A stretch of 64,000 bases of DNA from a virus (Duplodnaviria; Heunggongvirae; Uroviricota; Caudoviricetes). Location: IMG/VR virus record IMGVR_UViG_3300005076_000001, positions 23,361-87,360 of that record. The stretch is one strand, 5' to 3'. The notes beneath the pieces are model-generated. The model was not told where the DNA came from. It saw only the letters and a program-made list of their open reading frames with translations, and did not search any database. Numbering within the stretch: the first letter of the stretch is position 1; each line of letters starts with the position of its first letter. Positions 2,136 through 61,390 of the stretch are shown piece after piece. The position numbers and the translations under genes are program-made.

Positions 2136-3476
2136 ATGGCACACGAAGCATTCCGAGTAATGCAGAGTTTGTACGACACGCCTCATCTCATCTCTCAAAC
2201 CAGCCTTAATGCGATTGTCTCATATCTTGAAGATCGTGGCAACGGTGTTAGGGCTGAATCTGACGAAGAATCTCCTCGTTCCACATACGGCTACAACCCA
2301 GACACACAGATTGGTATGTTGTCTATTTCTGGTGCTCTGACAAACAAAACTACAGGCATGGAAATGATGTGTGGTGGTGTTAGCTACCAATCACTTGAAG
2401 AGCAAGCTGAAGAGTTGCTTGAAGCTGGTGCTAAGACACTTGTGCAGATGGTTGATAGCGGTGGTGGCGAAGCTTACGGTTGTTTCCAAACAGCCAATCG
2501 TATCCGAGAGATGGCAGATGAATATGGCGCTTCCATCATCAGTTATGTAGATGGGACAGCAGCCTCTGCTGCTTATGGCCTTATTGCCAAGAGTGACAAA
2601 ATCATTCTTAACCCAGATGCAGGTGTTGGAAGTATTGGTGTTGTTATCAAACTGCAAAACGTAGCTAAAGCAAAAGAACAGGCCGGTATTCAAGAGAGTT
2701 TTGTTTACGCTGGTGCTAACAAAATCCCGTATGCAGAAGACGGCTCCTATCGTAAAGAGTTTATTGCTGATTTGCAAGCTCGTGTAGACAAGATGTATGA
2801 ATCCTTTGCTACTCATGTTGCAGAAGGTCGCTCTCTGTCTCTGGAAGCCGTTAAAGCAACAGAAGCAAAAATGTTTATGGCTGATGAAGCTATTTCCCTT
2901 GGCCTAGCAGATGAAGTGATGACTACACACCAGTTTGCTAACGCCCTTGCCGACATGGCGAGTAATGTTAAACAAGAAAGGAAGTCAACAATGTTTGACA
3001 AAATTCTAGGCAAGGCTAAGGCAGAAGATGCTGGCGTCGTAGCCGAACTGGAGGCAAAACTCACCCAGATGGGCGAACAATTCGCTCAAATGGAAGAGCA
3101 ATTTGCTCTGGCAAAACAATCTCTGGAAGCTCATGTAGCTGACGCTGTTGCTCGTGCAGAACAAGCAGAAGCTGTGCTGAAAGCAAAAGAAGAAGCTGAA
3201 CAAGCTAAAGCACAGGCTGCTGAAGAAGCCCGTCTGAGTGCTCGTAAAGAAAAGCTCTCTGCTGCCGTAGGCGATGAGAAAGCTGTTGAAATGTTTGAAG
3301 CTCTGAAGGCCCTGCCGGATGCTGCTTTTGACAGTGTTGTTGATTCTATGTCGGCTGCTGTTGACCAGAAAAACGCACAAATGGATGAAATTGGCTTCAC
3401 TGTAGAACAAGCCTCTACCACACCTGATGTACCACACTTCTCTCAATATCTGAAAATTAAGAAAGAGGATAAGTAA
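2136..3476 (+). CDS. prohead serine protease (S49/ClpP-like) fused to Ala/Glu/Lys-rich coiled-coil scaffold domain
   Basis: Protease core YVDGTAASAAYGLIAKSD...GVGSIGVV resembles S49/ClpP active-site region; C-terminal 150 aa low-complexity AEAK coiled coil typical of scaffolds; lambda C/Nu3 position. Confidence 0.65.
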   Translation: MAHEAFRVMQSLYDTPHLISQTSLNAIVSYLEDRGNGVRAESDEESPRSTYGYNPDTQIGMLSISGALTNKTTGMEMMCGGVSYQSLEEQAEELLEAGAKTLVQMVDSGGGEAYGCFQTANRIREMADEYGASIISYVDGTAASAAYGLIAKSDKIILNPDAGVGSIGVVIKLQNVAKAKEQAGIQESFVYAGANKIPYAEDGSYRKEFIADLQARVDKMYESFATHVAEGRSLSLEAVKATEAKMFMADEAISLGLADEVMTTHQFANALADMASNVKQERKSTMFDKILGKAKAEDAGVVAELEAKLTQMGEQFAQMEEQFALAKQSLEAHVADAVARAEQAEAVLKAKEEAEQAKAQAAEEARLSARKEKLSAAVGDEKAVEMFEALKALPDAAFDSVVDSMSAAVDQKNAQMDEIGFTVEQASTTPDVPHFSQYLKIKKEDK

Positions 3477-3478
3477 TT

Positions 3479-3877
3479 ATGACTAAACTCGCTACTCGTG
3501 GCGCTAAACTGACTGGCGTTCTGGCATGGGAATTTGAGCCGGAGGTTGGCTACAGCCGCTCCACCGCTACCGTAACTGTTGAAGCAGGTATGGACGTAGG
3601 TGCTGTGGTTGTTCTGGCATCTGGTAAATACAAATGGGTTGCTGCTGCTGATGTTGCAACTCTGGCTGCCGATGTTCGCGTTGTTATTGACCCGACCATC
3701 ACCGACGTAGGCACTGGCGATAAGTCGCTGACCCTGCTGGGTAACGAACTGGCTGTTGCTCCTGCAATGGTTACTCGTGCTGGTCTGAAATTCAAAGACG
3801 CTCTGTCTGCCGGTCAAATCGACACTGTTATCACTAAACTGAACGCAAAAGGCATTCGTGCCGTAGCACGAGTGTAA
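3479..3877 (+). CDS. head decoration protein (lambda gpD-like)
   Basis: 132 aa between scaffold and major capsid gene; VLAWEFE...GAVVVLASG similar to gpD core; highly-expressed-gene codon usage. Confidence 0.5.
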   Translation: MTKLATRGAKLTGVLAWEFEPEVGYSRSTATVTVEAGMDVGAVVVLASGKYKWVAAADVATLAADVRVVIDPTITDVGTGDKSLTLLGNELAVAPAMVTRAGLKFKDALSAGQIDTVITKLNAKGIRAVARV

Positions 3878-4611
3878 TGTCCCGTAGTATTGTCTATTGG
3901 GCGCATCTTCCACAGCACACCGATATAACAAAAGAAGGCTATGTTGGTGTGTCTAGGAAGAACCTCTCTAAAAGAGAGCAACAACACAGGCGAGTCTCTG
4001 TAAAAGGCAATAATGTCTTCCATAAAGCCATTAGAAAATACAGAGAAGATATAGTCTTTGATGTTGTTGTCATTGCCTCTTTTGATATTTGCTTGAAGAT
4101 CGAAGCTGCATTACGTCCTGATATTTTCATAGGTTGGAATATGGCAAAGGGAGGCGGTTCTTCTCTACAACCTGTCAACAAGGCACCGTTAAGTCCTGAG
4201 ACAAAGAAGAAAATCTCCGAAGATCACAAAGCAAACGCACAGTTTTATGCCGACCAAGCAAGGCGTGTTCACACAGGAAGAAAACGGAGTGACGAAACTA
4301 AGAGGAAAATTTCATCCTCTTTGACTGGACGCACTTTGAGCGATAACACCAGAAAACTTATATCTGAGAACCGCACACCTCCTAAGAAATGGGAGCACCC
4401 TAACTCTGATATAAAGATGTGGGCTGTTGCCGATGAGCTGTTTGCTTTATGGGTAAACAATGACAAGTGCGGGAGGCAAAGGCTTGCAGAACTCTTCGGA
4501 GTCGGTAAGTACGCAGTTACAGCTATTCAAAAGTGCTTTAGAGAGGGATGGAACCCCTTAGATGATTCCGACTGGCAACACTTCAAATCAAATTACAAGG
4601 AAATAAAATGA
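3877..4611 (+). CDS. GIY-YIG homing endonuclease with three NUMOD3 repeats and C-terminal HTH
   Basis: N-terminal IVYWAHL...GYVGVS...R...H...N GIY-YIG motifs; NUMOD3-like TKKKISEDHK, TKRKISSSLTGR, TRKLISENR; start and stop overlap flanking capsid-module genes; AGA/AGG/ATA codon usage unlike neighbours. Confidence 0.8.
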   Translation: MSRSIVYWAHLPQHTDITKEGYVGVSRKNLSKREQQHRRVSVKGNNVFHKAIRKYREDIVFDVVVIASFDICLKIEAALRPDIFIGWNMAKGGGSSLQPVNKAPLSPETKKKISEDHKANAQFYADQARRVHTGRKRSDETKRKISSSLTGRTLSDNTRKLISENRTPPKKWEHPNSDIKMWAVADELFALWVNNDKCGRQRLAELFGVGKYAVTAIQKCFREGWNPLDDSDWQHFKSNYKEIK

Positions 4612-6170: not shown

Positions 6171-6618
6171 AGTTAAAATCGACACAAAGGGTTTGGATAA
6201 GCTTGTAAAGCGTGTTGAAGAAATCAAGAAAGCACAGCTTGATGTTGGTTATTTTGATGACATTCATCAAGCCTCTGGCCTTCCTGTTGCAGCCATTGCA
6301 GCAATGAACAATGAGGGTGTTCCAGAGAACAGTACACCTGCTCGTCCATTCGTAACAGAATCTCTCATTATGTCGTTTGAAAATAAAGCAGCAATGCGTC
6401 CTGTACGTTCTTTGCTTGACATTAAGATTCCTCTGAAGCTTACGTTGAGCCGTATTGGTGGACAAGCTGTAGAGCTTTTCAAATGGAACATTTACAATGG
6501 TGCATGGGTTGATAACGCTCCATACACTATTAGCTTGAAAGGCGTCAACTCTCCTCTTGTTGATACGGGAGAAATGGCTGACCTAACACTTTATCGCATT
6601 ACAACCCCATTTGCCTAA
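6151..6618 (+). CDS. structural hypothetical protein (neck/head-tail joining candidate)
   Basis: ATG 6151 overlaps previous stop by 20 nt; operon context. Confidence 0.35.
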   Translation: MAIFVSKVKIDTKGLDKLVKRVEEIKKAQLDVGYFDDIHQASGLPVAAIAAMNNEGVPENSTPARPFVTESLIMSFENKAAMRPVRSLLDIKIPLKLTLSRIGGQAVELFKWNIYNGAWVDNAPYTISLKGVNSPLVDTGEMADLTLYRITTPFA

Positions 6619-6636
6619 AGGCAGAAAGGAAATAAA

Positions 6637-6996
6637 ATGTCCTCTGCTCTTTTCCGTCTTGTTGGGTATGTTGATGTTACATTAAAGCGAAGAGGATTGC
6701 CTACAATTGTAAAAGGTAAGCCTGTTCCTGCAACAGCTACAGATGTTCCGATTAAAGCAAACATTCAACCTGTTGGATATGCAGAGCTAATGCAGCTTCC
6801 TGAAGGTGATAGAAGTAAACAGCTTATCATGCTTATGTCCACATTTGAAATTCGTGACATGAAAGAAGGAAGCTGGGAAGCTGATGAGTTTGAGTGGGAA
6901 GGTGATATGTATGTTGTTCTGAAAAGTCGTCATTATTCGATGCGTGTACGTAACCATTATCAAGCTATTTGTGCTAGAAAGCAAATGGTGAAATAA
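6637..6996 (+). CDS. structural hypothetical protein
   Basis: 119 aa ORF with RBS AAAGGAAA; structural operon. Confidence 0.35.
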   Translation: MSSALFRLVGYVDVTLKRRGLPTIVKGKPVPATATDVPIKANIQPVGYAELMQLPEGDRSKQLIMLMSTFEIRDMKEGSWEADEFEWEGDMYVVLKSRHYSMRVRNHYQAICARKQMVK

Positions 6997-23294: not shown

Positions 23295-23483
23295 TTAGGC
23301 AAACAAGCCAAGAATGCTACCGAGAGGGGCAAGAACAATACCTGCTGCTCGTGCAATCTGGAGTGTATCAAACAGAGGCAAGGCTTGAACAAATGCAACG
23401 ATGTTCATAATCCAACCAACAAAAGCCGCAATCCAGAGACCCACCACAACCAAACCAAAACCAGCACCAAACAGTTCTTTCAT
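23295..23483 (-). CDS. small membrane protein (2 TM)
   Basis: 62 aa hydrophobic ORF with RBS. Confidence 0.35.
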   Translation of the reverse strand: MKELFGAGFGLVVVGLWIAAFVGWIMNIVAFVQALPLFDTLQIARAAGIVLAPLGSILGLFA

Positions 23484-24072: not shown

Positions 24073-25794
24073 TTATTGGCAAGCCAAACATTCACCACTA
24101 CTGCTACTTACAACACCACGACTACTGTAGATGTAGTAGAGAGAAAGAATGTCTTCGTTCTCAAAAGCCTCTTGATGCACTTCAGCAATCAACTCTTCAC
24201 TTGCATTACCAGCAAAGTAGAGGTTGAGCGACTGACCTTGACAAATACGTCGTTGACGTGCTGCTGCCATACGGATAATTGCTTTCTGGTCAATTTCAAA
24301 TGCTGTCTTGAACACAAGCTTCTCTTCGGGTGTCAGCCAATCAACGTGTTGTACACTGCCCTGACCAGTCACAGTATCGCTGATACACTTCTCTACGTCA
24401 AGCCCTTTCTTCTTAATTAGTTCAAGAAGAACAGGATTGATACGATCTACTTCCCCTGCTGCCGTGAGTTGTGTAAAGCTCATCGCCATATCAGGGCCAA
24501 TACCTTCACTAATACCACCGTAAATCAATGCTGTGCTCTTTGTTGGAGCAATAGCAGTACGATGAGTGAAACGTACACCATACCCTTCACACCACTCAGG
24601 TTCGCCAAGAACAGAAGCAAGCCACTTAGAAGCTTCCAGCGATTGCTTATCAATGTGCGCAGCAATTTGGTTAGAAAGCATGTGTGCCTCAAAACCCTCA
24701 AACGGCAACATCTTCTTCTGGAACAGAGTGTGCAAACCACCTTGACCCAGACCAATTGCCCGACCTTTCACGGTGGAAGCAACAGCTTTCTCAAGACCTG
24801 CAATCTTGCTGCCTTTCTCGATAAAGTCACTTACAACACAATCGAGGAACACAGTGGCAACAAAAACAGCATCAGTATCTTTCCATTCGTCCCATTTACT
24901 GTCATTCATCCAAGAAAGCACACAAGTATATGTCAAATCTTTCGAAGAATGCAGCATAATTTCCGAGCAAAGCTGGCTTGCCTTGACATAAAGTTGCTTG
25001 TCTACGTACATTTGTGGGCGTTGTCGATTAACTTTATCCACAAACATGAAGTAGCCACGACCAAACACCATCTTCAGTTTCAGGGCTTTCTTGAACCGGC
25101 GATGTGCTTCCTTGTCTCCGTTGTTTAGTTTATCAACAAACTTGTCCTTGACAATCCAACCAACATTTCGACCATCAGGCTCTTTCTCGATAACACCCAC
25201 GAGTTCGTCAAAGTCACCGTGCTCAATGTCAACGTAACCAGCCCAGCCACCTCGACGGTTACTGCCTTGGCTCACGTCCACCATATCCTGCACAAAGTGT
25301 TCGTAGACAGGCACCAAACCTGCTGCTGTGCCGCCACGAGAGATAGGGCTACCACGAGGACGAATATCACTCAAATCAGTGGCTGTACCGAAACCTTCCT
25401 TGGTGAGCATAGCAACTTCACGATAAGCATCATAGAAGCCCAGCACACTGTCGTCAATAACACTACCTGCACAAGAGACAGAACAACCACGCTCTGTACC
25501 CATGTTGGCGAGAACAGGTGTACTACCAGCCATCCAGCCTTTCCACATAATCTCAAAGAATGCAGATTCCCATGTACGACCTACAGGCCAGTTTTCAGGA
25601 TAGGCTTTAGGGGCATGTTTTGCTGCTGTCTTTGCAATACGCTCAAATTGCTCACGAACATTGGTTGCTTGATAGAGGTATTTATTCTTGAACATCTGCC
25701 AGCCTGCTGTTGCCATCCAATCAGGAATTAGCCCTTCTTGCTGCAACATCTTACGTTCCATGCTCAGTGCTTCATACGCATTCACTACTGTCAT
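24073..25794 (-). CDS. nrdA: ribonucleotide reductase class I large subunit (no ATP cone)
   Basis: 573 aa; active-site region NMGTERGCSVSC; C-terminal redox-active Cys pair in ...GECLACQ; start overlaps nrdB stop. Confidence 0.8.
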   Translation of the reverse strand: MTVVNAYEALSMERKMLQQEGLIPDWMATAGWQMFKNKYLYQATNVREQFERIAKTAAKHAPKAYPENWPVGRTWESAFFEIMWKGWMAGSTPVLANMGTERGCSVSCAGSVIDDSVLGFYDAYREVAMLTKEGFGTATDLSDIRPRGSPISRGGTAAGLVPVYEHFVQDMVDVSQGSNRRGGWAGYVDIEHGDFDELVGVIEKEPDGRNVGWIVKDKFVDKLNNGDKEAHRRFKKALKLKMVFGRGYFMFVDKVNRQRPQMYVDKQLYVKASQLCSEIMLHSSKDLTYTCVLSWMNDSKWDEWKDTDAVFVATVFLDCVVSDFIEKGSKIAGLEKAVASTVKGRAIGLGQGGLHTLFQKKMLPFEGFEAHMLSNQIAAHIDKQSLEASKWLASVLGEPEWCEGYGVRFTHRTAIAPTKSTALIYGGISEGIGPDMAMSFTQLTAAGEVDRINPVLLELIKKKGLDVEKCISDTVTGQGSVQHVDWLTPEEKLVFKTAFEIDQKAIIRMAAARQRRICQGQSLNLYFAGNASEELIAEVHQEAFENEDILSLYYIYSSRGVVSSSSGECLACQ

Positions 25795-26807
25795 TAATTC
25801 GCCCCTTTCTTAGTTTTCCACACAAACCCATCTTCATTCCAGCCACGTTGATATTCACGACCAACGCCAGAAGTAAAGAAGTCAATCATCTGAATCTTTT
25901 GCACACCACTGTAAAACCATTTGGCAATCGGATTATCACCCACAGGGAACATCGCGTCAATGCCCAAATCAGCGAGACAGATGTTCAACCGGCTACGAGC
26001 AAACTCTTTCAACTGATGTGCGTTAATACCTCGTGGGTCGCCTTTGGCACAAAGCATTTCACAAATACGCTCTTCATGCTCCAACACACTGATTGCTGCT
26101 TGCTTAATCTTTTGTTGAATCTCCGCCACTTCTTCTTGGGAAAGTTGAAGCTCTTGCAGTGCAATGTTGTAAAGCAATGCACCAGCTGTTTGGTGCAAAC
26201 CTTCATCAATGGCAGATTGATTAATCCCACGTACAGTGTTGCTAATTAGGTTGTTACCGTTGCTTTGGAAGTTCTTAAACAAGGCAAAGCTACTGAACAG
26301 TACAGCACCTTCCACAAGAGAGAATACAGCCAAGTCAACCAAATCATCAGAGCTATTTACAATCTCATCCAAGAACTCCATACGAGCTTTTAACACAGGG
26401 TCTTCGATGTAACTCTCGTAAAAGCTGTCTACGTTCAGACCAAGTACTTGATTGAGCTTATCATAAAAAACTGCATGTATGCCCTCTTCAACCATGCCAA
26501 ACACTGCGCACAATCGCTGCACTTCAGGGCGCGGGAACATCTTACGAACACGGCCATTCCAGTGTTCACCACCAACAAACAGCTCGTATTTTACAAATAA
26601 CTTCAGAGCCGTCGATACAGCATGTTTCTCTGCCTCTGTCATATTCACCAGAAGGTCTTGCTTGTCTTTCTCTACATCCATCTCTGTTGCTGTCCAAAAG
26701 CAATCCACAAGCTGCTTATCAGCAAGCTCTACAATCTGTGGATAGTAGGTTACGTAGCTTTCTGTTGGTGTAAAAATGCGAGAATTGTATTTTCGAGTCA
26801 TATTCAT
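25794..26807 (-). CDS. nrdB: ribonucleotide reductase small subunit
   Basis: 337 aa ferritin-like di-iron protein immediately upstream of nrdA. Confidence 0.8.
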   Translation of the reverse strand: MNMTRKYNSRIFTPTESYVTYYPQIVELADKQLVDCFWTATEMDVEKDKQDLLVNMTEAEKHAVSTALKLFVKYELFVGGEHWNGRVRKMFPRPEVQRLCAVFGMVEEGIHAVFYDKLNQVLGLNVDSFYESYIEDPVLKARMEFLDEIVNSSDDLVDLAVFSLVEGAVLFSSFALFKNFQSNGNNLISNTVRGINQSAIDEGLHQTAGALLYNIALQELQLSQEEVAEIQQKIKQAAISVLEHEERICEMLCAKGDPRGINAHQLKEFARSRLNICLADLGIDAMFPVGDNPIAKWFYSGVQKIQMIDFFTSGVGREYQRGWNEDGFVWKTKKGAN

Positions 26808-45257: not shown

Positions 45258-46568
45258 TTACACACGTTCCTTTACAGAGTAGCTCATCAGTGCGTGATAC
45301 GCAGCGGGAATGATATGCTCTTTCCATTTCTCAGCAAGACGTCTGGCATAAGCTTCTTTGCAACCACAATATGCTTCATGGGCTTCCTCTTGAGTTGGGA
45401 AGAATCCAAGGTATTCCCTACCTTTCTCTGTGTTGCAACGAGCAATGTACCCAACTGTCTCATTAGGTGTTTTAGGCTCAATGATGTGTACACCACGCAA
45501 GAACTTGGAGTCGCTCGGCTCGATGAGGAACTTGTTAACTTCTGATGGTAGGAAACAACAGCCTTCTGGCCCGTACACTTTGTTGTTAGGAATCAACAGG
45601 TCTTTGTCAAGTTCAAACTTAGGTAGTTGCCAGTTTGGTTGTGCCAAACCCCATTCAGCGAAGTTATGAAAATTCCACCACCTTTGGTCTACCTCTTTAT
45701 CCTCATAGCTTCTACCTGTTGGTTTTTGCAACTCAAACTCATTGTAACAGCGACTGAACATCCTTACCCAATAACCGTACATCCGCTCTGGTGCATGTTC
45801 ACCACGCTTGCTGCCGCGAGGAACAAACCTGCCAACACCAAAGAAACCTCTACCCTCTACAGACGGCTGCGTTGGTGGTTTAATACCGCCACTCAAAATA
45901 TTAGCAGAAGCATTCCAAGACTCGCTACCATCTTGCCATCGAATGAGAACGTCATGTGGCCCTTCGTAGCCAATAACTTCGCCTTCCCAACCGCTATTTG
46001 TTTTGAACTTTTGCCCAATACGGACAGCGCCTGTCGGATGCCTTACATTACCTTCTTTTAGGTTGTTCCAAGAAGTAACAACTTCACTTCCATCCTCAAA
46101 GGCAACTAGAATCTTTGTGGCGTTTACAAACTGTTTAACCACAACACTCCCGTAGTTGTTCGTAGAGAATACAGTACCAATCTCCGGTTTGCTCTTGGTT
46201 GGATGGCGATTGTGCCCTTGTCGAAGAACTGCAATGTTGGTAGTATGCTCCGTTCCATCGCTCAACCACTTAACACGCATCTCGGAGTTTTTCAATACTT
46301 CCACAATCTCAACAACATCACCGTCATGGCAAGGGAATTGTTGCCCAACGTAAGGCTTACCGAACGTAGGATGAAGTGGGCGCTGTTGTTTAATATAAGT
46401 GCCGGTGGTTGTCACAATAGCCCCGTCAAGGTCGAAACGAACGTCAATGTCCTTTCTTCCTCGGTATGCAACAATCTCAACTTCAAGCCCCTGTTTGTTT
46501 GTATAGCGATAGCCTACAAAATAGGCACCTTTCCTACTACCCATATACCCTCCCAATAAATAAGCCAA
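45258..46568 (-). CDS. HNH-type homing endonuclease with four N-terminal ~50 aa tandem repeats and C-terminal AP2 domain
   Basis: Repeats ending in (R/L)HP; nuclease-like WWNFHNFAEW...LDKDLLIPNNKVYGPEGCCFLPSEVN; AP2-like GREYLGFFPTQEEAHEAY; paralog of 33953..34585. Confidence 0.5.
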   Translation of the reverse strand: MAYLLGGYMGSRKGAYFVGYRYTNKQGLEVEIVAYRGRKDIDVRFDLDGAIVTTTGTYIKQQRPLHPTFGKPYVGQQFPCHDGDVVEIVEVLKNSEMRVKWLSDGTEHTTNIAVLRQGHNRHPTKSKPEIGTVFSTNNYGSVVVKQFVNATKILVAFEDGSEVVTSWNNLKEGNVRHPTGAVRIGQKFKTNSGWEGEVIGYEGPHDVLIRWQDGSESWNASANILSGGIKPPTQPSVEGRGFFGVGRFVPRGSKRGEHAPERMYGYWVRMFSRCYNEFELQKPTGRSYEDKEVDQRWWNFHNFAEWGLAQPNWQLPKFELDKDLLIPNNKVYGPEGCCFLPSEVNKFLIEPSDSKFLRGVHIIEPKTPNETVGYIARCNTEKGREYLGFFPTQEEAHEAYCGCKEAYARRLAEKWKEHIIPAAYHALMSYSVKERV

Positions 46569-46592: not shown

Positions 46593-48347
46593 TTAAAATG
46601 AAACGTCCTGCTTACCCACCCAATCATCGAAGTCGTGCAATGAGTGGGTTTGTCCATCATAGAACAGTTTTCCACACTCACCTGTTGTACCTGCTCCGCG
46701 ATTCTTAGGCATGAAGAGGTTTGTAGTGTTGCGAATTATAGGGTCTTCGTTCATCTTGTCTCGACTTGCAATGATAATCCATGCAGCGGATTTAACAAGC
46801 GTACTACTACCCTGAACACCGCTCTCTGTGCCAACACCACCTTGACTACCATCCTTCTCACCCGTACCAACCTTACGTTGATGGGCAATCAGTATAAAGC
46901 TTACAGGATAGTTTGTCACCATACCCTTCATCCACATCATAAGCTGTGCTTGTTCGTCCACAGTGAGCATATCGAAGCTGTCAGAAATGGTGTCCCATAC
47001 GATGATTTGACAATCACATTGAATGATGAGCTGTTCAATGCGTTGCTTCATAATGTCGATGTGGCAGTCACGATCATCAATTACAAACCAACGATCTGCG
47101 CCGTCTGGTGTACGGAACAGTTCATTAGCCTTCTCAATTACCCACTCTTGTTCAAGAAGCTCAACCTTCTCTTCTTTAGTAAGAGCACCAAGTTTTACAC
47201 CGATATGGCGAGATAACACAAGCTCAGAATACTGGCCCAAGTTCTGTTCCATTGAAATGACGCCAACTTTCAGTTGACCGTTCATTAGCCAATGGTAACA
47301 GCACTCATTGACAATAGTTGATTTTGCTGCACCTGTAAATGCAGAAATCAGGCCAATCGTTCCCAGTGCTGGGCCACCTGCTGTCATGCTGTTAAACTTC
47401 TTCATGAAGGGCGGAAACTCAATACGTGGTGCATGTGCTTCTTTGATAACAGCATCAAGAAAACTACTACTACCTGCAATCCCTTGCGGTACATAAGGTT
47501 TTGCCTTCAAAAACGCATTCAGAAAATGGCGAGAACGATCTTGAATAAGCATCTCGTTAGCGTCTTTAAGGTCAATGTGCATAACGTACATCTTCCCTTT
47601 GGGCAGAACATCTACAAGCTTCTTGACAGCATCTTGACCAGCCTTATCGTTATCATAACAAACAATAATTTGCTCGAAACGATTTAGCCACTCGTAGTGG
47701 TGTTTCAATTGCTTAAAGCTGGCTGTCTCGCCCACAACAGCACTGACGATAGGTGTTGGCTCATACTCGCTGTCTGGCTTGTTAAGCATTGCATACGCAG
47801 ACATTGCATCAACTTCACCAGCGGTGATGAGAATCTTCTTGCTGTTGCTGTTACGGAATTTGTGCTGACCAAACAAATCACTCTCACTGCCCATGCTGCC
47901 AACTGTGTAGAATGTTTTTGGAAGCTGCCTTACTTTAAAGCCCGTCAGAACACCATCTTTGAAGATTGGATAGTATTGCTCAGTTGGCTCACCTGTGGTT
48001 GTGTCAATCTTATGGCGAACGTAAAACGGTGTGTACGCCCAATCAGGAATGCCACGTACTTTGTAGCCTTGTGGTGTGGTGTACCCTTTAATCTTCTCAA
48101 TCTCTTCTTTAGTTAGTGGTTCCTTGCTGCTCACCTCTTCCTCCATTTCATCAGTCCAGTCAAAAACACCAAGCCCACGTCTCTCTAATTCATCGTCGGA
48201 CAACACAGAGAAGCCGCAGCTGAAACAATGACCGCCAAGCCCCTCGCCATAGAAATAAAAGTTATCCCCAGAATGATCTTGGTTGTTCTCACGGCAGCGC
48301 GGGCATGGGTTTTTACCGATTTTAAAATCAACCGCGTAGTGGTTCAC
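46593..48347 (-). CDS. primase-helicase (T7 gp4-like)
   Basis: N-terminal Zn ribbon CPRC...CFSC; TOPRIM-like ITAGEVDAMSAY; Walker A AFTGAAKST; 584 aa. Confidence 0.8.
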   Translation of the reverse strand: MNHYAVDFKIGKNPCPRCRENNQDHSGDNFYFYGEGLGGHCFSCGFSVLSDDELERRGLGVFDWTDEMEEEVSSKEPLTKEEIEKIKGYTTPQGYKVRGIPDWAYTPFYVRHKIDTTTGEPTEQYYPIFKDGVLTGFKVRQLPKTFYTVGSMGSESDLFGQHKFRNSNSKKILITAGEVDAMSAYAMLNKPDSEYEPTPIVSAVVGETASFKQLKHHYEWLNRFEQIIVCYDNDKAGQDAVKKLVDVLPKGKMYVMHIDLKDANEMLIQDRSRHFLNAFLKAKPYVPQGIAGSSSFLDAVIKEAHAPRIEFPPFMKKFNSMTAGGPALGTIGLISAFTGAAKSTIVNECCYHWLMNGQLKVGVISMEQNLGQYSELVLSRHIGVKLGALTKEEKVELLEQEWVIEKANELFRTPDGADRWFVIDDRDCHIDIMKQRIEQLIIQCDCQIIVWDTISDSFDMLTVDEQAQLMMWMKGMVTNYPVSFILIAHQRKVGTGEKDGSQGGVGTESGVQGSSTLVKSAAWIIIASRDKMNEDPIIRNTTNLFMPKNRGAGTTGECGKLFYDGQTHSLHDFDDWVGKQDVSF

Positions 48348-57380: not shown

Positions 57381-57672
57381 AGATTTGAAGAAAAAGCTGG
57401 AAGAGGCACAGAGTAATGTCGCTTCTCTTGAGAAAGAGATTGCTTCTAAAACACCACATTTTTGTGGGAAGTTTGACTTCTTGTATCTACTGCCACACCG
57501 CGCTGAGATTGTGCGTCGTTGGTGTGAGAAACATCAACTGCCTTATTCTATTGATGGGGTTTCAGCTTATGGGTTTGCTGGAGGTTATATCAGCATGGAC
57601 GTTTATGTAGATGGCGCTTTTACGTCAGCCCGTCTTCGTGATTTGGCAGATAAGATGGAGGAGAATGTATGA
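57367..57672 (+). CDS. hypothetical protein
   Basis: 101 aa ORF. Confidence 0.3.
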   Translation: MTTLEDLKKKLEEAQSNVASLEKEIASKTPHFCGKFDFLYLLPHRAEIVRRWCEKHQLPYSIDGVSAYGFAGGYISMDVYVDGAFTSARLRDLADKMEENV

Positions 57673-58409
57673 CACAACGTACCGAACAAATTAAAGTGGA
57701 GTTCATTGACAAGATGGGCAGTGACAAGCGCATTTGTAACGCTGCTCGCGTTTCATTTGCCAAGTGGGATGATACTGAAGAAATCACTGAGGCAGATAAG
57801 GGATTGCTTCGTTATCTTGCTACAGGTTTGCCAAAAGCTGAACGTGACGATTGGGAGAAACGTGCAAAAGCACACACTCATTTCACACCTTTCTGCCATG
57901 CAACACTATCTGTTCGTGTAACTGTTCCTATCTTCGTTGCACGACAATTGCACAAACATGTAATCGGTTTGGTGATTAACGAAGAGTCTCGTCGTTACAT
58001 TACAAACGATGTTAAGCTTTTTATTCCAGATGTTGTGCATAAAGCCCCAGCACATGCAAAGCAAGGTGCAAGTGATGAAGAGCACACTGCTATTGTAGTG
58101 AAAGAGGCTAAGTTTGGAGGTGATGATCTGACAGCAAAACAGCTTATTGAACAGCAAACAAATGCTGCTGTCGATGTGTACGAGGCTCTGCTAGACGCAG
58201 GAGTTGCACCAGAAGAAGCACGTATGGTATTGCCTTTGAATACAATGGTGACGTGGATTTGGACAGGCTCTCTTCTGGCTTTCAACCGTGTTTATCAACA
58301 ACGTATTGACAGCCATGCACAGAAGACAGGTACGCAAGAGTTTGCCGAGAAGCTTGGTACAATTCTCTATGAATACTTTCCGCATAGTATGGAAGCACTA
58401 AACAATTAG
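57669..58409 (+). CDS. thyX: flavin-dependent thymidylate synthase
   Basis: 246 aa; ThyX signature HKHVIGLVINEESRRY (RHR-x7-S-x-RY type); C-terminal MVTWIWTGSLLAFNR. Confidence 0.75.
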   Translation: MTQRTEQIKVEFIDKMGSDKRICNAARVSFAKWDDTEEITEADKGLLRYLATGLPKAERDDWEKRAKAHTHFTPFCHATLSVRVTVPIFVARQLHKHVIGLVINEESRRYITNDVKLFIPDVVHKAPAHAKQGASDEEHTAIVVKEAKFGGDDLTAKQLIEQQTNAAVDVYEALLDAGVAPEEARMVLPLNTMVTWIWTGSLLAFNRVYQQRIDSHAQKTGTQEFAEKLGTILYEYFPHSMEALNN

Positions 58410-58420
58410 AAACACACATG

Positions 58421-58450
58421 AGAGCATACATTTCTGTATGCTCTTTTTGT
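58421..58450 (+). terminator. rho-independent terminator (AGAGCATACA hairpin family)
   Basis: AGAGCATACA-tttc-TGTATGCTCT then TTTTTGTTTTTG. Confidence 0.65.
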
Positions 58451-58458
58451 TTTTGTGC

Positions 58459-58487
58459 TTGACAACATGCTTGCTGTGGATTATATT
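58459..58487 (+). promoter_or_regulatory. sigma70 promoter TTGACA-N17-TATATT
   Basis: -35 58459-58464; -10 58482-58487. Confidence 0.5.
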
Positions 58488-58519
58488 AGCTACATCAACA
58501 ACGAAGCAGGAGAAAGAAC

Positions 58520-58765
58520 ATGAAACAATTTCCGTACGCACAGCAAATCATTTGGGAGAATGATGTTGAGCAAATTGAATGGGAAGAGCAGTATGGGAAG
58601 TGCTGGAAATCGACTCTTTACGTTGCCAAAACCCATAACACGAAAGACGTTGTTGTAGGCGGGTTCTCCAGCAGGAATACAATTGGGGATGAGATTTTAG
58701 TGTTCATGACACCTAACGGTAGACAGCTTGAAGTAAGTAAACTCTTGTGCTGGGCAAAGCTATGA
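58520..58765 (+). CDS. hypothetical protein
   Basis: 81 aa ORF. Confidence 0.3.
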   Translation: MKQFPYAQQIIWENDVEQIEWEEQYGKCWKSTLYVAKTHNTKDVVVGGFSSRNTIGDEILVFMTPNGRQLEVSKLLCWAKL

Positions 58766-58932
58766 CAAGTGGCTACTATTTCATTAAGCTAGCTACAAAC
58801 GTAGCCCTTCCAATGTACGTCATATGTCTTGACGAACGCATGTATATTTGGCAGAATGGGAAACAACAATGGCTGCAATTGAAGAAAGAGCAAATAATGG
58901 GTGAACGTCTTACGTATGAGGGAGATAAGTAA
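58747..58932 (+). CDS. hypothetical protein
   Basis: 61 aa ORF. Confidence 0.25.
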   Translation: MLGKAMTSGYYFIKLATNVALPMYVICLDERMYIWQNGKQQWLQLKKEQIMGERLTYEGDK

Positions 58933-59768
58933 TGCTATACAACATCCTCAAACAACTTCAAGAAACACCGAGTACAAACGATAAGCTTTCTATTTTGAAA
59001 GCAAACAAAGACAATGAGACATTGAAAGAATACATGCGTCTTGTTTGTTGCCCTTCTGTCTCGTTTTATATTACAGCAAAGACGTTTCCTGTTGTATCTA
59101 AGATAGGGACACATACATTCCAGTCTCTCATGAATGCTGGGTATTCTCTTGGTACAAAAGAACTTTCTCAACGTCATGTTACAGGACAGGCAGCAAAGAA
59201 TTTTATTGTTGCTACAATGGAAGACCTTGATGAAGAGCACCAACAACTGTACAAAATGCTTCTTCTCAAGGACATTCGTGCGAAAGTGGGGGCAACACTT
59301 GTGAATAAGGTGTGGCCTAATTTGTGTGTCTCTGTTCCATATCAACGCTGCTCTCTTCCAGATGAAAAGACATTGGAGAAGTTTAAGAATGGAGAACAGT
59401 TCTTTGTTCAACTTAAATACGATAGTTCTTTTGCATATGCGTTCAAGTCTCCACGTGAATTTGCCCTTATTACAAGGGCCGGGTCACGATACCCCAAAGA
59501 AATTGCAAGTATCATTACAGAAGACATTCCAGAGAACTACGTGTTGATGGGTGAGTTAGAGGTTGTTTACAAAGGGGAAGTCCTTTCTAGAAAAGATGGC
59601 TGTGGGGTGCTAAATAGCTTGTTGAACGGAGGGCCGTTACCTTCTGGTTGTGGGCTTCAATTAACTGCGTGGGATGTTGTCAGTGTTGAAGAATTTTCAA
59701 AAAGTAAGAGTGACAAACCGTACTGGGAAAGACTCAACCTGCTGAGGGGGATGTTCACGAATGAGTGA
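58932..59768 (+). CDS. ATP-dependent DNA ligase (T4 gp30-like), N-terminal fragment (through motif IIIa)
   Basis: MLYNILKQLQETPSTNDKLSILKANKDNETLKEYMRL ~ T4 ligase N-terminus; VNKVWPNL; motif I region QLKYDSSF; LITRAGSRY; ends where T4 ligase continues. Confidence 0.7.
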   Translation: MLYNILKQLQETPSTNDKLSILKANKDNETLKEYMRLVCCPSVSFYITAKTFPVVSKIGTHTFQSLMNAGYSLGTKELSQRHVTGQAAKNFIVATMEDLDEEHQQLYKMLLLKDIRAKVGATLVNKVWPNLCVSVPYQRCSLPDEKTLEKFKNGEQFFVQLKYDSSFAYAFKSPREFALITRAGSRYPKEIASIITEDIPENYVLMGELEVVYKGEVLSRKDGCGVLNSLLNGGPLPSGCGLQLTAWDVVSVEEFSKSKSDKPYWERLNLLRGMFTNE

Positions 59769-60342
59769 TAATTTACACTGGGAAGATTATTTCTACTACG
59801 ACGAAACAAGTCCTAGTTGTCTAAGGTGGAAAGTTTCTGTGTACAGTGGATGTGGGTTAAAAACACAGAATGTCAGAGAAAACCAAGAAATCCAGCATAA
59901 AGATCGTGAAGGGTATTTTGTTGTTGGGTTGATGAAGAGGAGACATAAAGTACATAGAATAATCTATGAGATGTTCTACGGAGAAATCCCAGAGGGCATG
60001 GTGATAGACCACGTAGATAGAGACAAAGAAAACAACAAGATTGAGAATCTGCGCGCAGTTTCATGCAAAGTTAATTCCAGAAATACTAAAAGATACTCCT
60101 CCAACACGTCTGGGGTGACAGGGGTTAGTTTGCAAACCTCTTATAAGTCTTCAGGAAATTACACAGCGTATGTTGCAAATTGGACAGATTTAGAAGGAGT
60201 AAAACACGGAAAGTCATTTTCCATCCTTAAATATGGGGAAGAATTGGCATTGAAATTGGCCGAGGAGTATAGACGCAGTAAGATTGCGGAGCTTAATGCG
60301 CAAGGAGCTGGGTACAATGACACACATGGGGATGTGCTATGA
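59761..60342 (+). CDS. HNH_3 homing endonuclease with AP2 domain, inserted between ligase halves
   Basis: IDHVDRDKENNKIENLRAVSCKVNSRN HNH_3 motif; AP2-like GVTGVSLQTSYKSSGNYTAYVANW...ELALKLAEEYRR; own SD GAGGGGGA; ATG overlaps ligase-N stop. Confidence 0.75.
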   Translation: MSDNLHWEDYFYYDETSPSCLRWKVSVYSGCGLKTQNVRENQEIQHKDREGYFVVGLMKRRHKVHRIIYEMFYGEIPEGMVIDHVDRDKENNKIENLRAVSCKVNSRNTKRYSSNTSGVTGVSLQTSYKSSGNYTAYVANWTDLEGVKHGKSFSILKYGEELALKLAEEYRRSKIAELNAQGAGYNDTHGDVL

Positions 60343-60839
60343 AAAATATTAAACTCGCAGAAACACACACAGTTACGTCACTGGAGGGTGCTTTTGAGAT
60401 CTATTCCAGATATGTTGAGCAAGGTTATGAGGGTGTGATTATTAAGACAAAAGATTTTTTGTGGAGTTCGTCTACAAGTAAGGAATGTCTCAAGCTGAAA
60501 GTGGAAGCAGAGATTGACTTGATTTGGACAGACAGTGTGGAAGGCAAGGGGAAAGCTGCCGGAATGCTTGGTGCTATGTGCTTGCAAAGCTCTTGTGGAC
60601 GTGTTAAAGTGGATTGTGGCACTGGCTATACAGATGCACAGCGTAAACAGCTTTGGGAAGAACGTAGCAGCCTGCATGGCTCTGTTGTGACGGTGAAAGC
60701 CAACGACCTCGTCTCGAAGGAAGGCAGCAATGTGTTGTCTCTATTCCTACCTGTGTTCATTGAGCTACGTGAGAAGCAAGAGGCAGACAGCTTGGAACGT
60801 ATTGAGCAAATTTTCAATGCTGCTAAACATATTGCTTGA
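60339..60839 (+). CDS. ATP-dependent DNA ligase C-terminal fragment (motifs IV, V and OB domain)
   Basis: EGVIIK (motif IV), CLKLK (motif V), GKGKAAGMLGAM...LFLPVFIELRE aligns with T4 ligase C-terminus; own SD GGGGA; ATGA overlap with HEG stop. Confidence 0.7.
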   Translation: MKNIKLAETHTVTSLEGAFEIYSRYVEQGYEGVIIKTKDFLWSSSTSKECLKLKVEAEIDLIWTDSVEGKGKAAGMLGAMCLQSSCGRVKVDCGTGYTDAQRKQLWEERSSLHGSVVTVKANDLVSKEGSNVLSLFLPVFIELREKQEADSLERIEQIFNAAKHIA

Positions 60840-60899
60840 CACACATTCCTACACAAGCTAATATACAGACATACAAACAATGTAACGAAAGGAAGAGAA

Positions 60900-61040
60900 A
60901 TGAAAGACATTCTGCTTCAGATTGAACAACTGGAAGATGAAGTGATTGTGTGGCAAGAACGCGGCAATGTAACGCTTGCTCGTAAGTTCAAGGAGCAACT
61001 GATTGCTTTGCGTAAACAAGTGTTGAAAGGGGAAGAATGA
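60900..61040 (+). CDS. small hypothetical protein (46 aa)
   Basis: ORF with AAAGGAAGAGAA RBS, not in track (<60 aa). Confidence 0.25.
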   Translation: MKDILLQIEQLEDEVIVWQERGNVTLARKFKEQLIALRKQVLKGEE

Positions 61041-61390
61041 TGCCTCTGACAACACAAGATTTTCTGTATAAAGGGTACAAGAAATTCAAGTCTGTACTTA
61101 ACAATGCTGATTTTGGTTTGCAACGCGTTGTGCGTGATGAGGAAGGGAATAAGAAATACTTCCTAACCGTGTATGCATACGACTTCAGCACATCACAACA
61201 TCAAGCACTAGCACAGCGAGGGATTGTGTTCTCTTACGAGGTGTGTTTGTATACGGAAGATTTTGCACAAGAAGATGGTTACACTACGTTCCATGTAACA
61301 GGTAGTGTTGAAGACATTGAAACATTTGAAAAGTGGATTGAACACATGTACAATAAGCTGAATTGCGTTATTGATGTTCATAACAACTAA
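61037..61390 (+). CDS. hypothetical protein
   Basis: 117 aa ORF, ATGA overlap. Confidence 0.3.
   Translation: MMPLTTQDFLYKGYKKFKSVLNNADFGLQRVVRDEEGNKKYFLTVYAYDFSTSQHQALAQRGIVFSYEVCLYTEDFAQEDGYTTFHVTGSVEDIETFEKWIEHMYNKLNCVIDVHNN

Follow-up and report, generated by a model that had tools for sequence, protein, structure and literature searches.

A T4-type ATP-dependent DNA ligase is encoded in two pieces in the window analyzed here, a stretch of 64,000 nucleotides (nt) covering positions 23,361 to 87,360 of the IMG/VR virus record IMGVR_UViG_3300005076_000001 (Caudoviricetes). Instead of a single polypeptide, the ligase is specified by two open reading frames (ORFs), with a 193-codon ORF in another frame between them. 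The upstream piece, LigN (58932-59768, + strand; 278 amino acids, aa), contains the DNA-binding domain and the first part of the nucleotidyltransferase (NTase) domain, with catalytic motifs I, III, and IIIa. The downstream piece, LigC (60339-60839, + strand; 166 aa), finishes the NTase domain with its last strands, which bear motifs IV and V, and continues into the OB domain and motif VI. The gene between them (59761-60342, + strand; 193 aa), which is read in the +1 frame with respect to the ligase, encodes an endonuclease with HNH_3 and AP2 domains. All three ORFs were found where the preliminary description of the locus, made from the letters alone, had placed them. We consider it very probable that a free-standing HNH-AP2 gene resides within a T4-type ligase gene, that the ligase is expressed in two pieces, and that the endonuclease gene has spread together with adjacent ligase sequence as a mobile cassette, in the manner proposed below.

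Two open reading frames for one T4-type ligase

The division of the ligase between the two ORFs, first noticed as a likeness of LigN to the T4 ligase N-terminus through motif IIIa and of LigC to the remainder, is borne out by profile and structure comparisons. The two proteins cover consecutive parts of PHROG 114 (ATP-dependent DNA ligase), with LigN matching positions 90-360 (E 1.5e-50) and LigC positions 367-518 (E 1.2e-41), and likewise of the T4 ligase chain in 6dt1, where LigN 1-188 aligns with residues 21-208 and LigC 5-155 with residues 338-497. Among Pfam families, DNA_ligase_OB_2 is recognized in LigC (E 2.5e-9), as are the final 50 positions of DNA_ligase_A_M. When LigN and LigC are fused end to end, the alignment to unsplit ligases crosses the junction without a gap; only about three junction residues (MKN) are specific to the split form, and the fused length is otherwise that of unsplit relatives. 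The break falls near residue 313 of T4 gp30, between motif IIIa (residue 279) and motif IV (residue 344). In an AlphaFold2 model of the fusion (32 homologs; pLDDT 89, pTM 0.71), the break (278|279) maps to a coil of 7 residues that links helix 264-274 to strand 282-284, with residues 282-331 finishing the NTase fold and residues 335-422 forming the OB fold; the top Foldseek match of this model is T4 ligase on DNA (6dt1; E 1e-38, 460 columns). Given the consecutive profile coverage, the gap-free junction, the confident fused model, and the match to the T4 ligase fold, LigN and LigC are together predicted to constitute a complete T4-type ATP-dependent ligase. T4 gp30, the best match in both sequence and fold, has the same architecture of DNA-binding, NTase, and OB domains and the same motifs, but is one chain of 487 aa with KADGAR as motif I, whereas the window encodes two chains (278 and 166 aa) with KYDSSF; the identity is ~27%.

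Relatives carry one contiguous ligase rather than two unrelated, independent ORFs; for instance, the relative L001 (67% identical), which lies on an IMG/VR contig of 88 kb, has an uninterrupted ligase of 493 aa. The unsplit share of relatives is ~99%. Among the best 80 of 254 IMG/VR ligase loci, 79 are contiguous and one is split, and the 44 close homologs of LigN comprise 41 full-length ligases (439-463 aa) and three N-terminal fragments. The same three-ORF layout was nonetheless found in seven further independent assemblies from different samples (sources JGI, NCBI, ENA, and Logan), with endonucleases about 45-98% identical to that of the window at the protein level: ~97% in L002, to which the endonuclease of L005 is near-identical, 97% in L003, 58% in L008, 59% in L012, 45% in L014/L015, and 46% in L016. 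The break falls at one alignment column in all seven complete copies (L002, L003, L005, L008, L012, L014/L015, and L016), and LigC begins with MKNIK in every split allele. The split arrangement is thus, as far as these comparisons indicate, rare but old. Two further candidates from deposited phages, IME-SM1 and SP1, in which the annotation ("DNA ligase" and "hypothetical protein") pointed to a split ligase, were rejected, both ligases being intact.

Catalytic motifs and selection on both halves

Every motif quoted in the preliminary description is present on the + strand. In LigN, motif I, KYDSSF (59415-59432), keeps the Lys nucleophile (Lys162) and the Asp (Asp164) and has Ser for the usual Gly; motif III, LMGELEV (59544-59564), keeps the Glu in the xGEL form found across unsplit relatives; and the motif IIIa region, LQLTAWDVV (59655-59681), aligns with FQVWDY of T4 gp30 and with the relatives. 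In LigC, motif IV, EGVIIK (60429-60446), which belongs to the cassette described below, aligns with EGIILK of T4; motif V, LKLK (60489-60500), lies just past the downstream exchange boundary of that cassette, in a conserved SKECLKLK block; and the motif VI region, LFLPVFIELRE (60741-60773), was located by alignment. Motifs III, IIIa, IV, V, and VI occur in order and align with those of T4 and 42 relatives.

The departures from the motif I and motif III consensus had been flagged as unusual, a view that holds for one of them only. The absent Arg of motif I and the absent Asp of motif III are clade-wide traits that are not specific to the cassette: F or Y is the residue at motif I position 6 in all 42 of the close relatives that are unsplit and in ~93% of some 168 unsplit representatives, and motif III lacks the Asp throughout the clade, as in the unsplit P0035, which has VLMGELLVF. 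Of these changes, the replacement of Gly by Ser in motif I alone is peculiar to cassettes of the window type. At this position, ~95% of unsplit representatives have Gly, and motif I reads KLDGSF in four distant split lineages. Full-length relatives with another residue at this position exist as well, with Ala in P0051, P0076, P0091, and P0114 and Met in P0100 and P0104; the "invariant" Gly appears relaxed in a phage ligase clade that also uniformly lacks the motif I Arg.

Nei-Gojobori estimates place both ligase halves under purifying selection, with ratios of nonsynonymous to synonymous divergence (omega) that span 0.08-0.25. Between the window and L003, omega is 0.25 for LigN overall and 0.11 for its residues 150-278, the NTase core, where synonymous divergence (dS) is 0.50. 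For LigC from residue 51 onward, the comparison of the window with L002 gives a dS of 1.43 and an omega of 0.17, within a range of 0.08-0.25 for this piece. The NTase cores of the window and L003 differ at 41 codons, 26 of them synonymously, including the codons for Gly207 and Glu208 of motif III, and 15 nonsynonymously, with the nonsynonymous changes concentrated in loops. Every catalytic motif is retained in the distant split lineages, those with endonucleases 45-59% identical to that of the window.

These results bear on the possibility that invasion by the endonuclease gene inactivated the ligase and left a decaying pseudogene, with the host ligase used in its place and the cassette kept by endonuclease drive alone. 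Besides the lack of the near-universal motif I Gly in KYDSSF, this account can draw on the fact that T4 ligase mutants are partly rescuable by host ligase, and on one locus (L013, described below) in which an endonuclease gene is followed by a remnant of the ligase tail with no ligase upstream, indicating that the ligase can be lost. We nevertheless regard decay as unlikely. The ORFs and motifs III-VI are intact in both halves at eight loci, over which the endonucleases have diverged to 45-59%; omega is low in the cassette core and in LigC alike; synonymous changes fall at catalytic codons and nonsynonymous ones in loops; four distant split lineages have the canonical KLDGSF; and full-length relatives tolerate Ala or Met at the position in question. 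Ligase activity may be altered, as had been suggested, but the omega of 0.11 on the core argues against decay.

A probable mobile cassette and its endonuclease

What moves appears to be a block of ~1.1 kb that carries a foreign ligase catalytic core, not the endonuclease gene alone. This cassette (~59380-60474, + strand) comprises the NTase core (LigN ~151-278), the endonuclease gene, and LigC 1-45, including motif IV. The window and L002 are 97-100% identical at the nucleotide level over 59374-60453, compared with 40-56% midway through the DNA-binding domain and 48-72% beyond 60574, and their neighboring genes are unalignable; identity peaks over the endonuclease gene and declines to either side of it. 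In a segment-by-segment comparison, the central block (LigN 151-278 with LigC 1-50) is 88-100% identical among split alleles only, with unsplit ligases reaching 43-56% at most. The outer parts of each split allele, by contrast, have a match of 92-100% identity in a different unsplit ligase. In the window, the DNA-binding domain resembles those of P0006, P0004, and L001 and the C-terminal part those of P0024, P0025, and P0019; the outer segments of L002 resemble P0014 and P0017, then P0005, P0007, and P0017, and those of L003 resemble P0025. The cassette is present in at least four ligase backgrounds.

A filled and an empty allele can be compared directly. L005 (filled) and L001 (empty) are 95% identical up to LigN ~151 and again identical at 448/450 positions (99.6%) from LigC ~46; between these points, ~1083 bp in L005 stand in place of ~550 bp in L001, with nothing alignable. 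The exchange boundaries fall at the conserved blocks PYxRCSLPDEK and GTSKECLKLK. The foreign core shows no alignable DNA similarity to the resident core that it replaces, and protein identity is ~31% on average, with 43% as the best value to an unsplit ligase. A word-indexed search of 5.8e9 proteins yielded no unsplit ligase with a KYDSSF-type core, only split fragments, and in an exhaustive HMMER search of 1.84e9 representatives, the best unsplit match to the core was 50% identical. IMG/VR contains one recipient-clade locus, the L001 contig. Directly after its ligase, this contig has an additional ~380 bp (~6470-6850), including a 150-aa ORF (6398-6850), that L005 lacks although the two are 95-100% identical elsewhere.

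The unsplit relatives, the gap-free junction, the absence of an intron or intein, the recurrence of the layout, the identity gradients, and the filled/empty pair support the initial proposal of a gene in pieces created by a homing endonuclease, as described for nrdA of phage Aeh1. The endonuclease gene is seated in the NTase loop between motifs IIIa and IV, and its product would cut unsplit ligase alleles in mixed infection. Because the ligase flanks of the cassette lack homology to the resident core, the diverged flanks could not template repair against a core of the L001 type, and recombination would be resolved where conserved sequence is next encountered, in the KVWPNLC..PYxRCSLPDEK block upstream and the GTSKECLKLK block downstream. 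The ~1.1-kb block would then be copied whole, producing a chimera in which a foreign split core joins the resident DNA-binding and OB domains. We infer break-initiated gene conversion, that is, homing, as the mechanism of spread. A bolder version of this scheme, to which we give somewhat less than even odds, is a self-propagating "catalytic-core swap", in which a cleavage-immune split core overwrites motifs I-IV, the Ser-bearing chimera is fully active, its active site being formed in trans without tail peptides, and the split site serves as a landing pad.

The identification of the intervening ORF as an HNH_3 and AP2 endonuclease gene rests on matches above the curated Pfam cutoffs for both domains (HNH_3, E 2.5e-19, 69.1 bits against a cutoff of 24.8; AP2, E 1.4e-8, 35.3 bits against 33.3) and on a match to PHROG 99 (HNH endonuclease; E 5.9e-41). 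The residues invariant among 20 compared members of the family, including D83, H84, N96, and N108, are kept. In all pairs, the endonuclease genes have a dS of 0.08-0.11 and an omega of 0.11-0.22; the dS of the flanking ligase DNA, 0.5-1.4, is 5-10 times higher. The family is very large (333 proteins at E<=1e-25, mostly on contigs of 75-93 kb), and among 80 IMG/VR family loci, a single contig has the gene within a ligase. The ligase-resident endonucleases group together in a neighbor-joining tree. No close copies were found in IMG/VR, and a scan of JGI metagenomes gave L003 only.

Free-standing HNH-AP2 genes of the same broad family often lie near unsplit ligase genes. In L001, such a gene (3553-4137), distant from that of the window (E 8e-19), is located ~0.9 kb upstream of the unsplit ligase, and in L092, one (2501-3037) is located ~0.7 kb downstream. 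L013 differs from all of these loci: it encodes an endonuclease (153-821) 75% identical to that of the window, with the C-terminus fused to what appear to be the last ~20 residues of a ligase (..ERMFEAVKQGEMLYE), and the sequence upstream is noncoding in all frames, on a contig of just 1 kb. Here, the ligase appears to have been deleted and the endonuclease retained.

The endonuclease gene itself has been exchanged at the split site. The ligase halves of L012 and L016 are 82-90% identical at the nucleotide level, whereas their endonuclease genes (L012 3501-4073 and L016 3501-4058) are 43-68% identical (50% at the protein level), and the transition from one level to the other coincides with the edges of the gene. 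This pattern indicates that endonucleases are replaced at a fixed split site, which would act as a stable landing pad; the split would be old and stable, with endonuclease variants replacing one another there. Exchange within the ligase gene is also seen away from the endonuclease. The middle of the DNA-binding domain (59082-59252, + strand; LigN residues 51-107) is hypervariable and has been exchanged independently of the rest of the gene: between the window and L002, it is 40-56% identical in flanks that are 88-97% identical, and the version in the window is 100% identical to that of P0006, that in L002 resembles P0014, and that in L003 resembles P0025. There are at least three unrelated versions of this segment in near-identical flanks, with no endonuclease gene nearby. 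L012 and L016 likewise have a mosaic DNA-binding segment, with 50% identity at L012 2815-2991.

Such exchanges raise the possibility that the mosaic reflects ordinary homologous recombination, the endonuclease being a passive and possibly inactive passenger. Mosaicism without an endonuclease nearby, as at 59082-59252, is what this explanation would lead one to expect, and between L012 and L016, the whole ligase gene forms an island of similarity between unalignable neighbors. Against this stand the identity maximum, which lies exactly on the endonuclease gene and falls on both sides; the dS of that gene, 5-10 times below that of the adjacent ligase DNA; and the purifying selection on the endonuclease, with the family-invariant residues kept. 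Furthermore, a ~1.1-kb block that shares no DNA homology with the 550 bp replaced by it recurs with the same boundaries in at least four backgrounds, as break-initiated repair predicts. We therefore judge recombination with an idle endonuclease to be distinctly unlikely.

Expression, known genes in pieces, and implications

The gene boundaries suggest how the pieces could be expressed. As the preliminary description had it, the endonuclease gene overlaps the ligase ORFs at both junctions. The overlap of LigN with the endonuclease gene is 8 nt long (ATGAGTGA); the endonuclease gene and LigC share 4 nt (ATGA). Each ligase piece also has a Shine-Dalgarno sequence of its own, as had been noted. 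The start of LigN overlaps the stop codon of an upstream 61-aa ORF (TAATG) and is preceded by GAGGGAG, whereas the Shine-Dalgarno sequence of LigC, GGGGA, 7 nt before the ATG, appears to be encoded by the last codons of the endonuclease gene. The overlapping stop and start codons suggest translational coupling.

The sequence GGGGATGT does recur at both junctions of the window. Copy 1 (59747-59754, + strand), within GAGGGGGA, would be a weak or distant Shine-Dalgarno sequence for the endonuclease gene (ATG at 59761), and copy 2 (60328-60335, + strand) contains the GGGGA before LigC, in the final ..HGD codons of the endonuclease. The window has five copies in total (10814, 20529, 44804 on the - strand, 59747, and 60328), against 0.99 expected, a number reached in 0 of 100 shuffles. 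In relatives, the repeat is not conserved. At the 5' junction, L003 matches it at 7/8 positions, and it is absent in L008, L012, L014, and L016; the equivalents of copy 1 are AAAGGGATGT in L003, GAAGGAG in L008 and L014, GGAAAGGA in L012, and GAAAAGGA in L016, and those of copy 2 are GGAGG in L008 and GGAGAA in L012, L014, and L016, in ..HGG or ..HGE codons. An insertion footprint was rejected on these grounds and because the repeat overlaps Shine-Dalgarno positions; it is best read as a lineage-specific, Shine-Dalgarno-like coincidence.

Upstream, a terminator-like hairpin (58420-58445, + strand; 11-bp stem followed by a T-run) matches the consensus and would end the unit of thyX (57669-58409; Pfam Thy1, E 2.1e-33). 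It is followed by a promoter-like site, TTGACA-17-TATATT (58459-58487, + strand), that matches the consensus at 11/12 positions, and two small ORFs (orf81 and orf61) lie between this site and LigN. Other promoter-like sites on the + strand match at 9/12 (58829-58857) and 10/12 (60836-60864) positions, and no + strand terminator-like site occurs between 58459-58487 and 60836-60864. A single transcript running from orf81 through orf61, LigN, and the endonuclease gene to LigC is likely driven by the site at 58459-58487. From this transcript, the ligase would be made as two polypeptides, without RNA or protein splicing, that assemble noncovalently, LigC providing the last NTase beta-strands and thereby completing the active site in trans.

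Alternatively, a group I or group II intron might carry the endonuclease ORF, with splicing of the ligase mRNA leading to a single polypeptide. Phage replication genes often contain endonuclease-bearing group I introns (PMC2988022), and in the window, LigC is read in the frame of LigN (1407 nt apart). That common frame carries no meaning, because it is kept in L008 and L012 but not in L014 and L016. No Rfam intron model matched 58500-61300 at E<=10 with permissive filters, the lone match being a chance one to a snoRNA (E 3.1). The endonuclease ORF takes up the whole 570-nt interval and extends into the ligase ORFs on either side, leaving no room for a ribozyme core, and the RNA folds at the junctions of the window and two relatives are no better than those of shuffled sequence (not significant; z -1.2 to +1.4). 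In every lineage, an in-frame stop ends LigN, and LigC begins at a conserved ATG of its own (MKNIK) that is preceded by a Shine-Dalgarno sequence. We accordingly rejected a group I/II intron as highly improbable. An intein or split intein was rejected as well: stop codons bound the insert, which is read in the +1 frame; its only Pfam domains are HNH_3 and AP2, with no Hint domain; and the alignment with unsplit relatives reveals no extra sequence at the junction ends of either ligase piece. The sequence thus contains no signal of an intron or an intein, either of which would have contradicted the preliminary description. That the split is an artefact of sequencing or assembly, or a chimeric contig, merits next to no credence despite the metagenomic origin of the data and the shortness of many comparison contigs, being already refuted, on the sequences compared, by the recurrence of the same layout and break column in independent JGI, NCBI, ENA, and Logan assemblies and by the insert being a complete 193-aa ORF under selection.

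Several points weigh against our preferred reading of a homing endonuclease gene within a ligase that is expressed in two pieces and spread as a cassette. Motif I of the window has Ser where ~95% of the family have Gly, and the codons there are identical in the four cassette copies and thus carry no information on selection at this site. The comparison loci are mostly short metagenomic contigs of 1-4 kb. The NTase core of the window is more diverged from that of L003 (80-95% nucleotide identity) than is the endonuclease gene (95-100%) and, therefore, several overlapping exchanges, rather than one clean transfer, must have taken place. The promoter and terminator calls are consensus matches that occur at background frequency. 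Finally, the mosaic pattern could in principle arise by ordinary homologous recombination between coinfecting phages.

The source of the window is an uncultivated myovirus of ~87 kb. Genes identified in the window include those for the portal protein, protease, tail sheath, baseplate protein, tape measure protein, a PolA-type polymerase, primase/helicase, NrdAB, and ThyX. By tail sheath, the closest cultured relatives are Pseudomonas myophages of ~95 kb (45%); no near-identical DNA was found among deposited phages, for which the top protein match is 34%. Neither a second ligase nor a further HNH-AP2 gene was found within the window. The NrdA ORF (24073-25794, - strand; 573 aa) was considered as another split gene, given that its profile match begins only at position ~200 or 397, and rejected, as both Pfam domains of ribonucleotide reductase are present; nrdB (25794-26807, - strand) directly abuts it, and the short NrdA seems to lack the N-terminal ATP-cone region rather than to be fragmented. 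An unrelated HNH endonuclease ORF (45258-46568, - strand; 436 aa; PHROG 953, E 4.6e-47; no Pfam match) is located 24 nt downstream of the primase/helicase gene (46593-48347, - strand) and may represent another homing endonuclease associated with a replication gene.

The closest precedent for the organization of the ligase is the genes-in-pieces ribonucleotide reductase of phage Aeh1, encoded by nrdA-a, mobE, and nrdA-b (Friedrich et al. 2007, PNAS 104:6176; PMC3045599; PMC2988022), whose insertion-derived tail peptides are essential (Crona et al. 2011, PMC3045599). Both proteins are made, or in the window predicted to be made, as two polypeptides without RNA or protein splicing, and both are split within the catalytic domain, with active-site residues on both pieces and close coupling of start and stop codons. 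In the window, however, the host gene is that of an ATP-dependent DNA ligase, the endonuclease is of the HNH_3 and AP2 type, and the ligase pieces lack added tail peptides; the split persists with endonucleases diverged to 45% and travels with a foreign catalytic core. In T4, mobA and gene 60 reportedly form a mobile cassette. The split topoisomerase of T4, with mobA and genes 60 and 39, is among the listed cases (PMC2988022; see also bioRxiv 10.1101/2022.08.31.505936). As in the window, the endonuclease gene and adjacent host-gene sequence are comobile and the host gene is left in pieces, but the window lacks a translational bypass element, and its comobilized sequence is ~0.5 kb of the ligase catalytic core.

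T4 SegF and SegG are said to act by intronless homing and to cause marker exclusion. Intronless homing is also described for MobE (PMC2790892), nuclease genes have been found at recombination boundaries (PMC10448857), and AP2-associated HNH endonucleases are recognized as a class of phage homing endonucleases. Presence/absence polymorphism, coconversion of flanks, and identity gradients or exchange boundaries at the endonuclease gene are common to SegF, SegG, and MobE and the window; in contrast to these intergenic genes, the endonuclease gene of the window lies within coding sequence, and the tract swaps an unalignable catalytic core. T5 also has a DNA ligase annotated as two adjacent genes (ligA and ligB; ORF119/120 in a T5-like phage), a precedent for a phage ligase in two genes, but that enzyme is of the NAD-dependent LigA type, and the genes are separated by ~200 bp with promoters and no endonuclease gene. 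A full-text literature search turned up no description of an endonuclease-split ATP-dependent phage ligase, a result that, given incomplete coverage, is absence of evidence only; within this scope, the ligase of the window is the first ATP-dependent ligase found among the genes fragmented by a free-standing homing endonuclease.

With it, an ATP-dependent ligase joins the short list of essential genes fragmented by endonucleases, namely those for ribonucleotide reductase, topoisomerase, and DNA polymerase, and it does so with an unusually clear comparative record that includes a near-isogenic filled/empty pair, a cassette in at least four backgrounds, and endonuclease exchange at a stable site. 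If active, a ligase broken within the NTase domain and yet selected would show that its active site can be assembled in trans. Given that T4-type DNA ligase is among the most used enzymes in molecular biology, the break near T4 residue 313 may also be of use as a permissive split point for engineered split or conditional ligases, and the Gly-to-Ser variant of motif I provides a direct test of the strictness of the KxDG rule. More broadly, homing might swap half of the catalytic core of an enzyme and thereby give rise to chimeric enzymes between clades.

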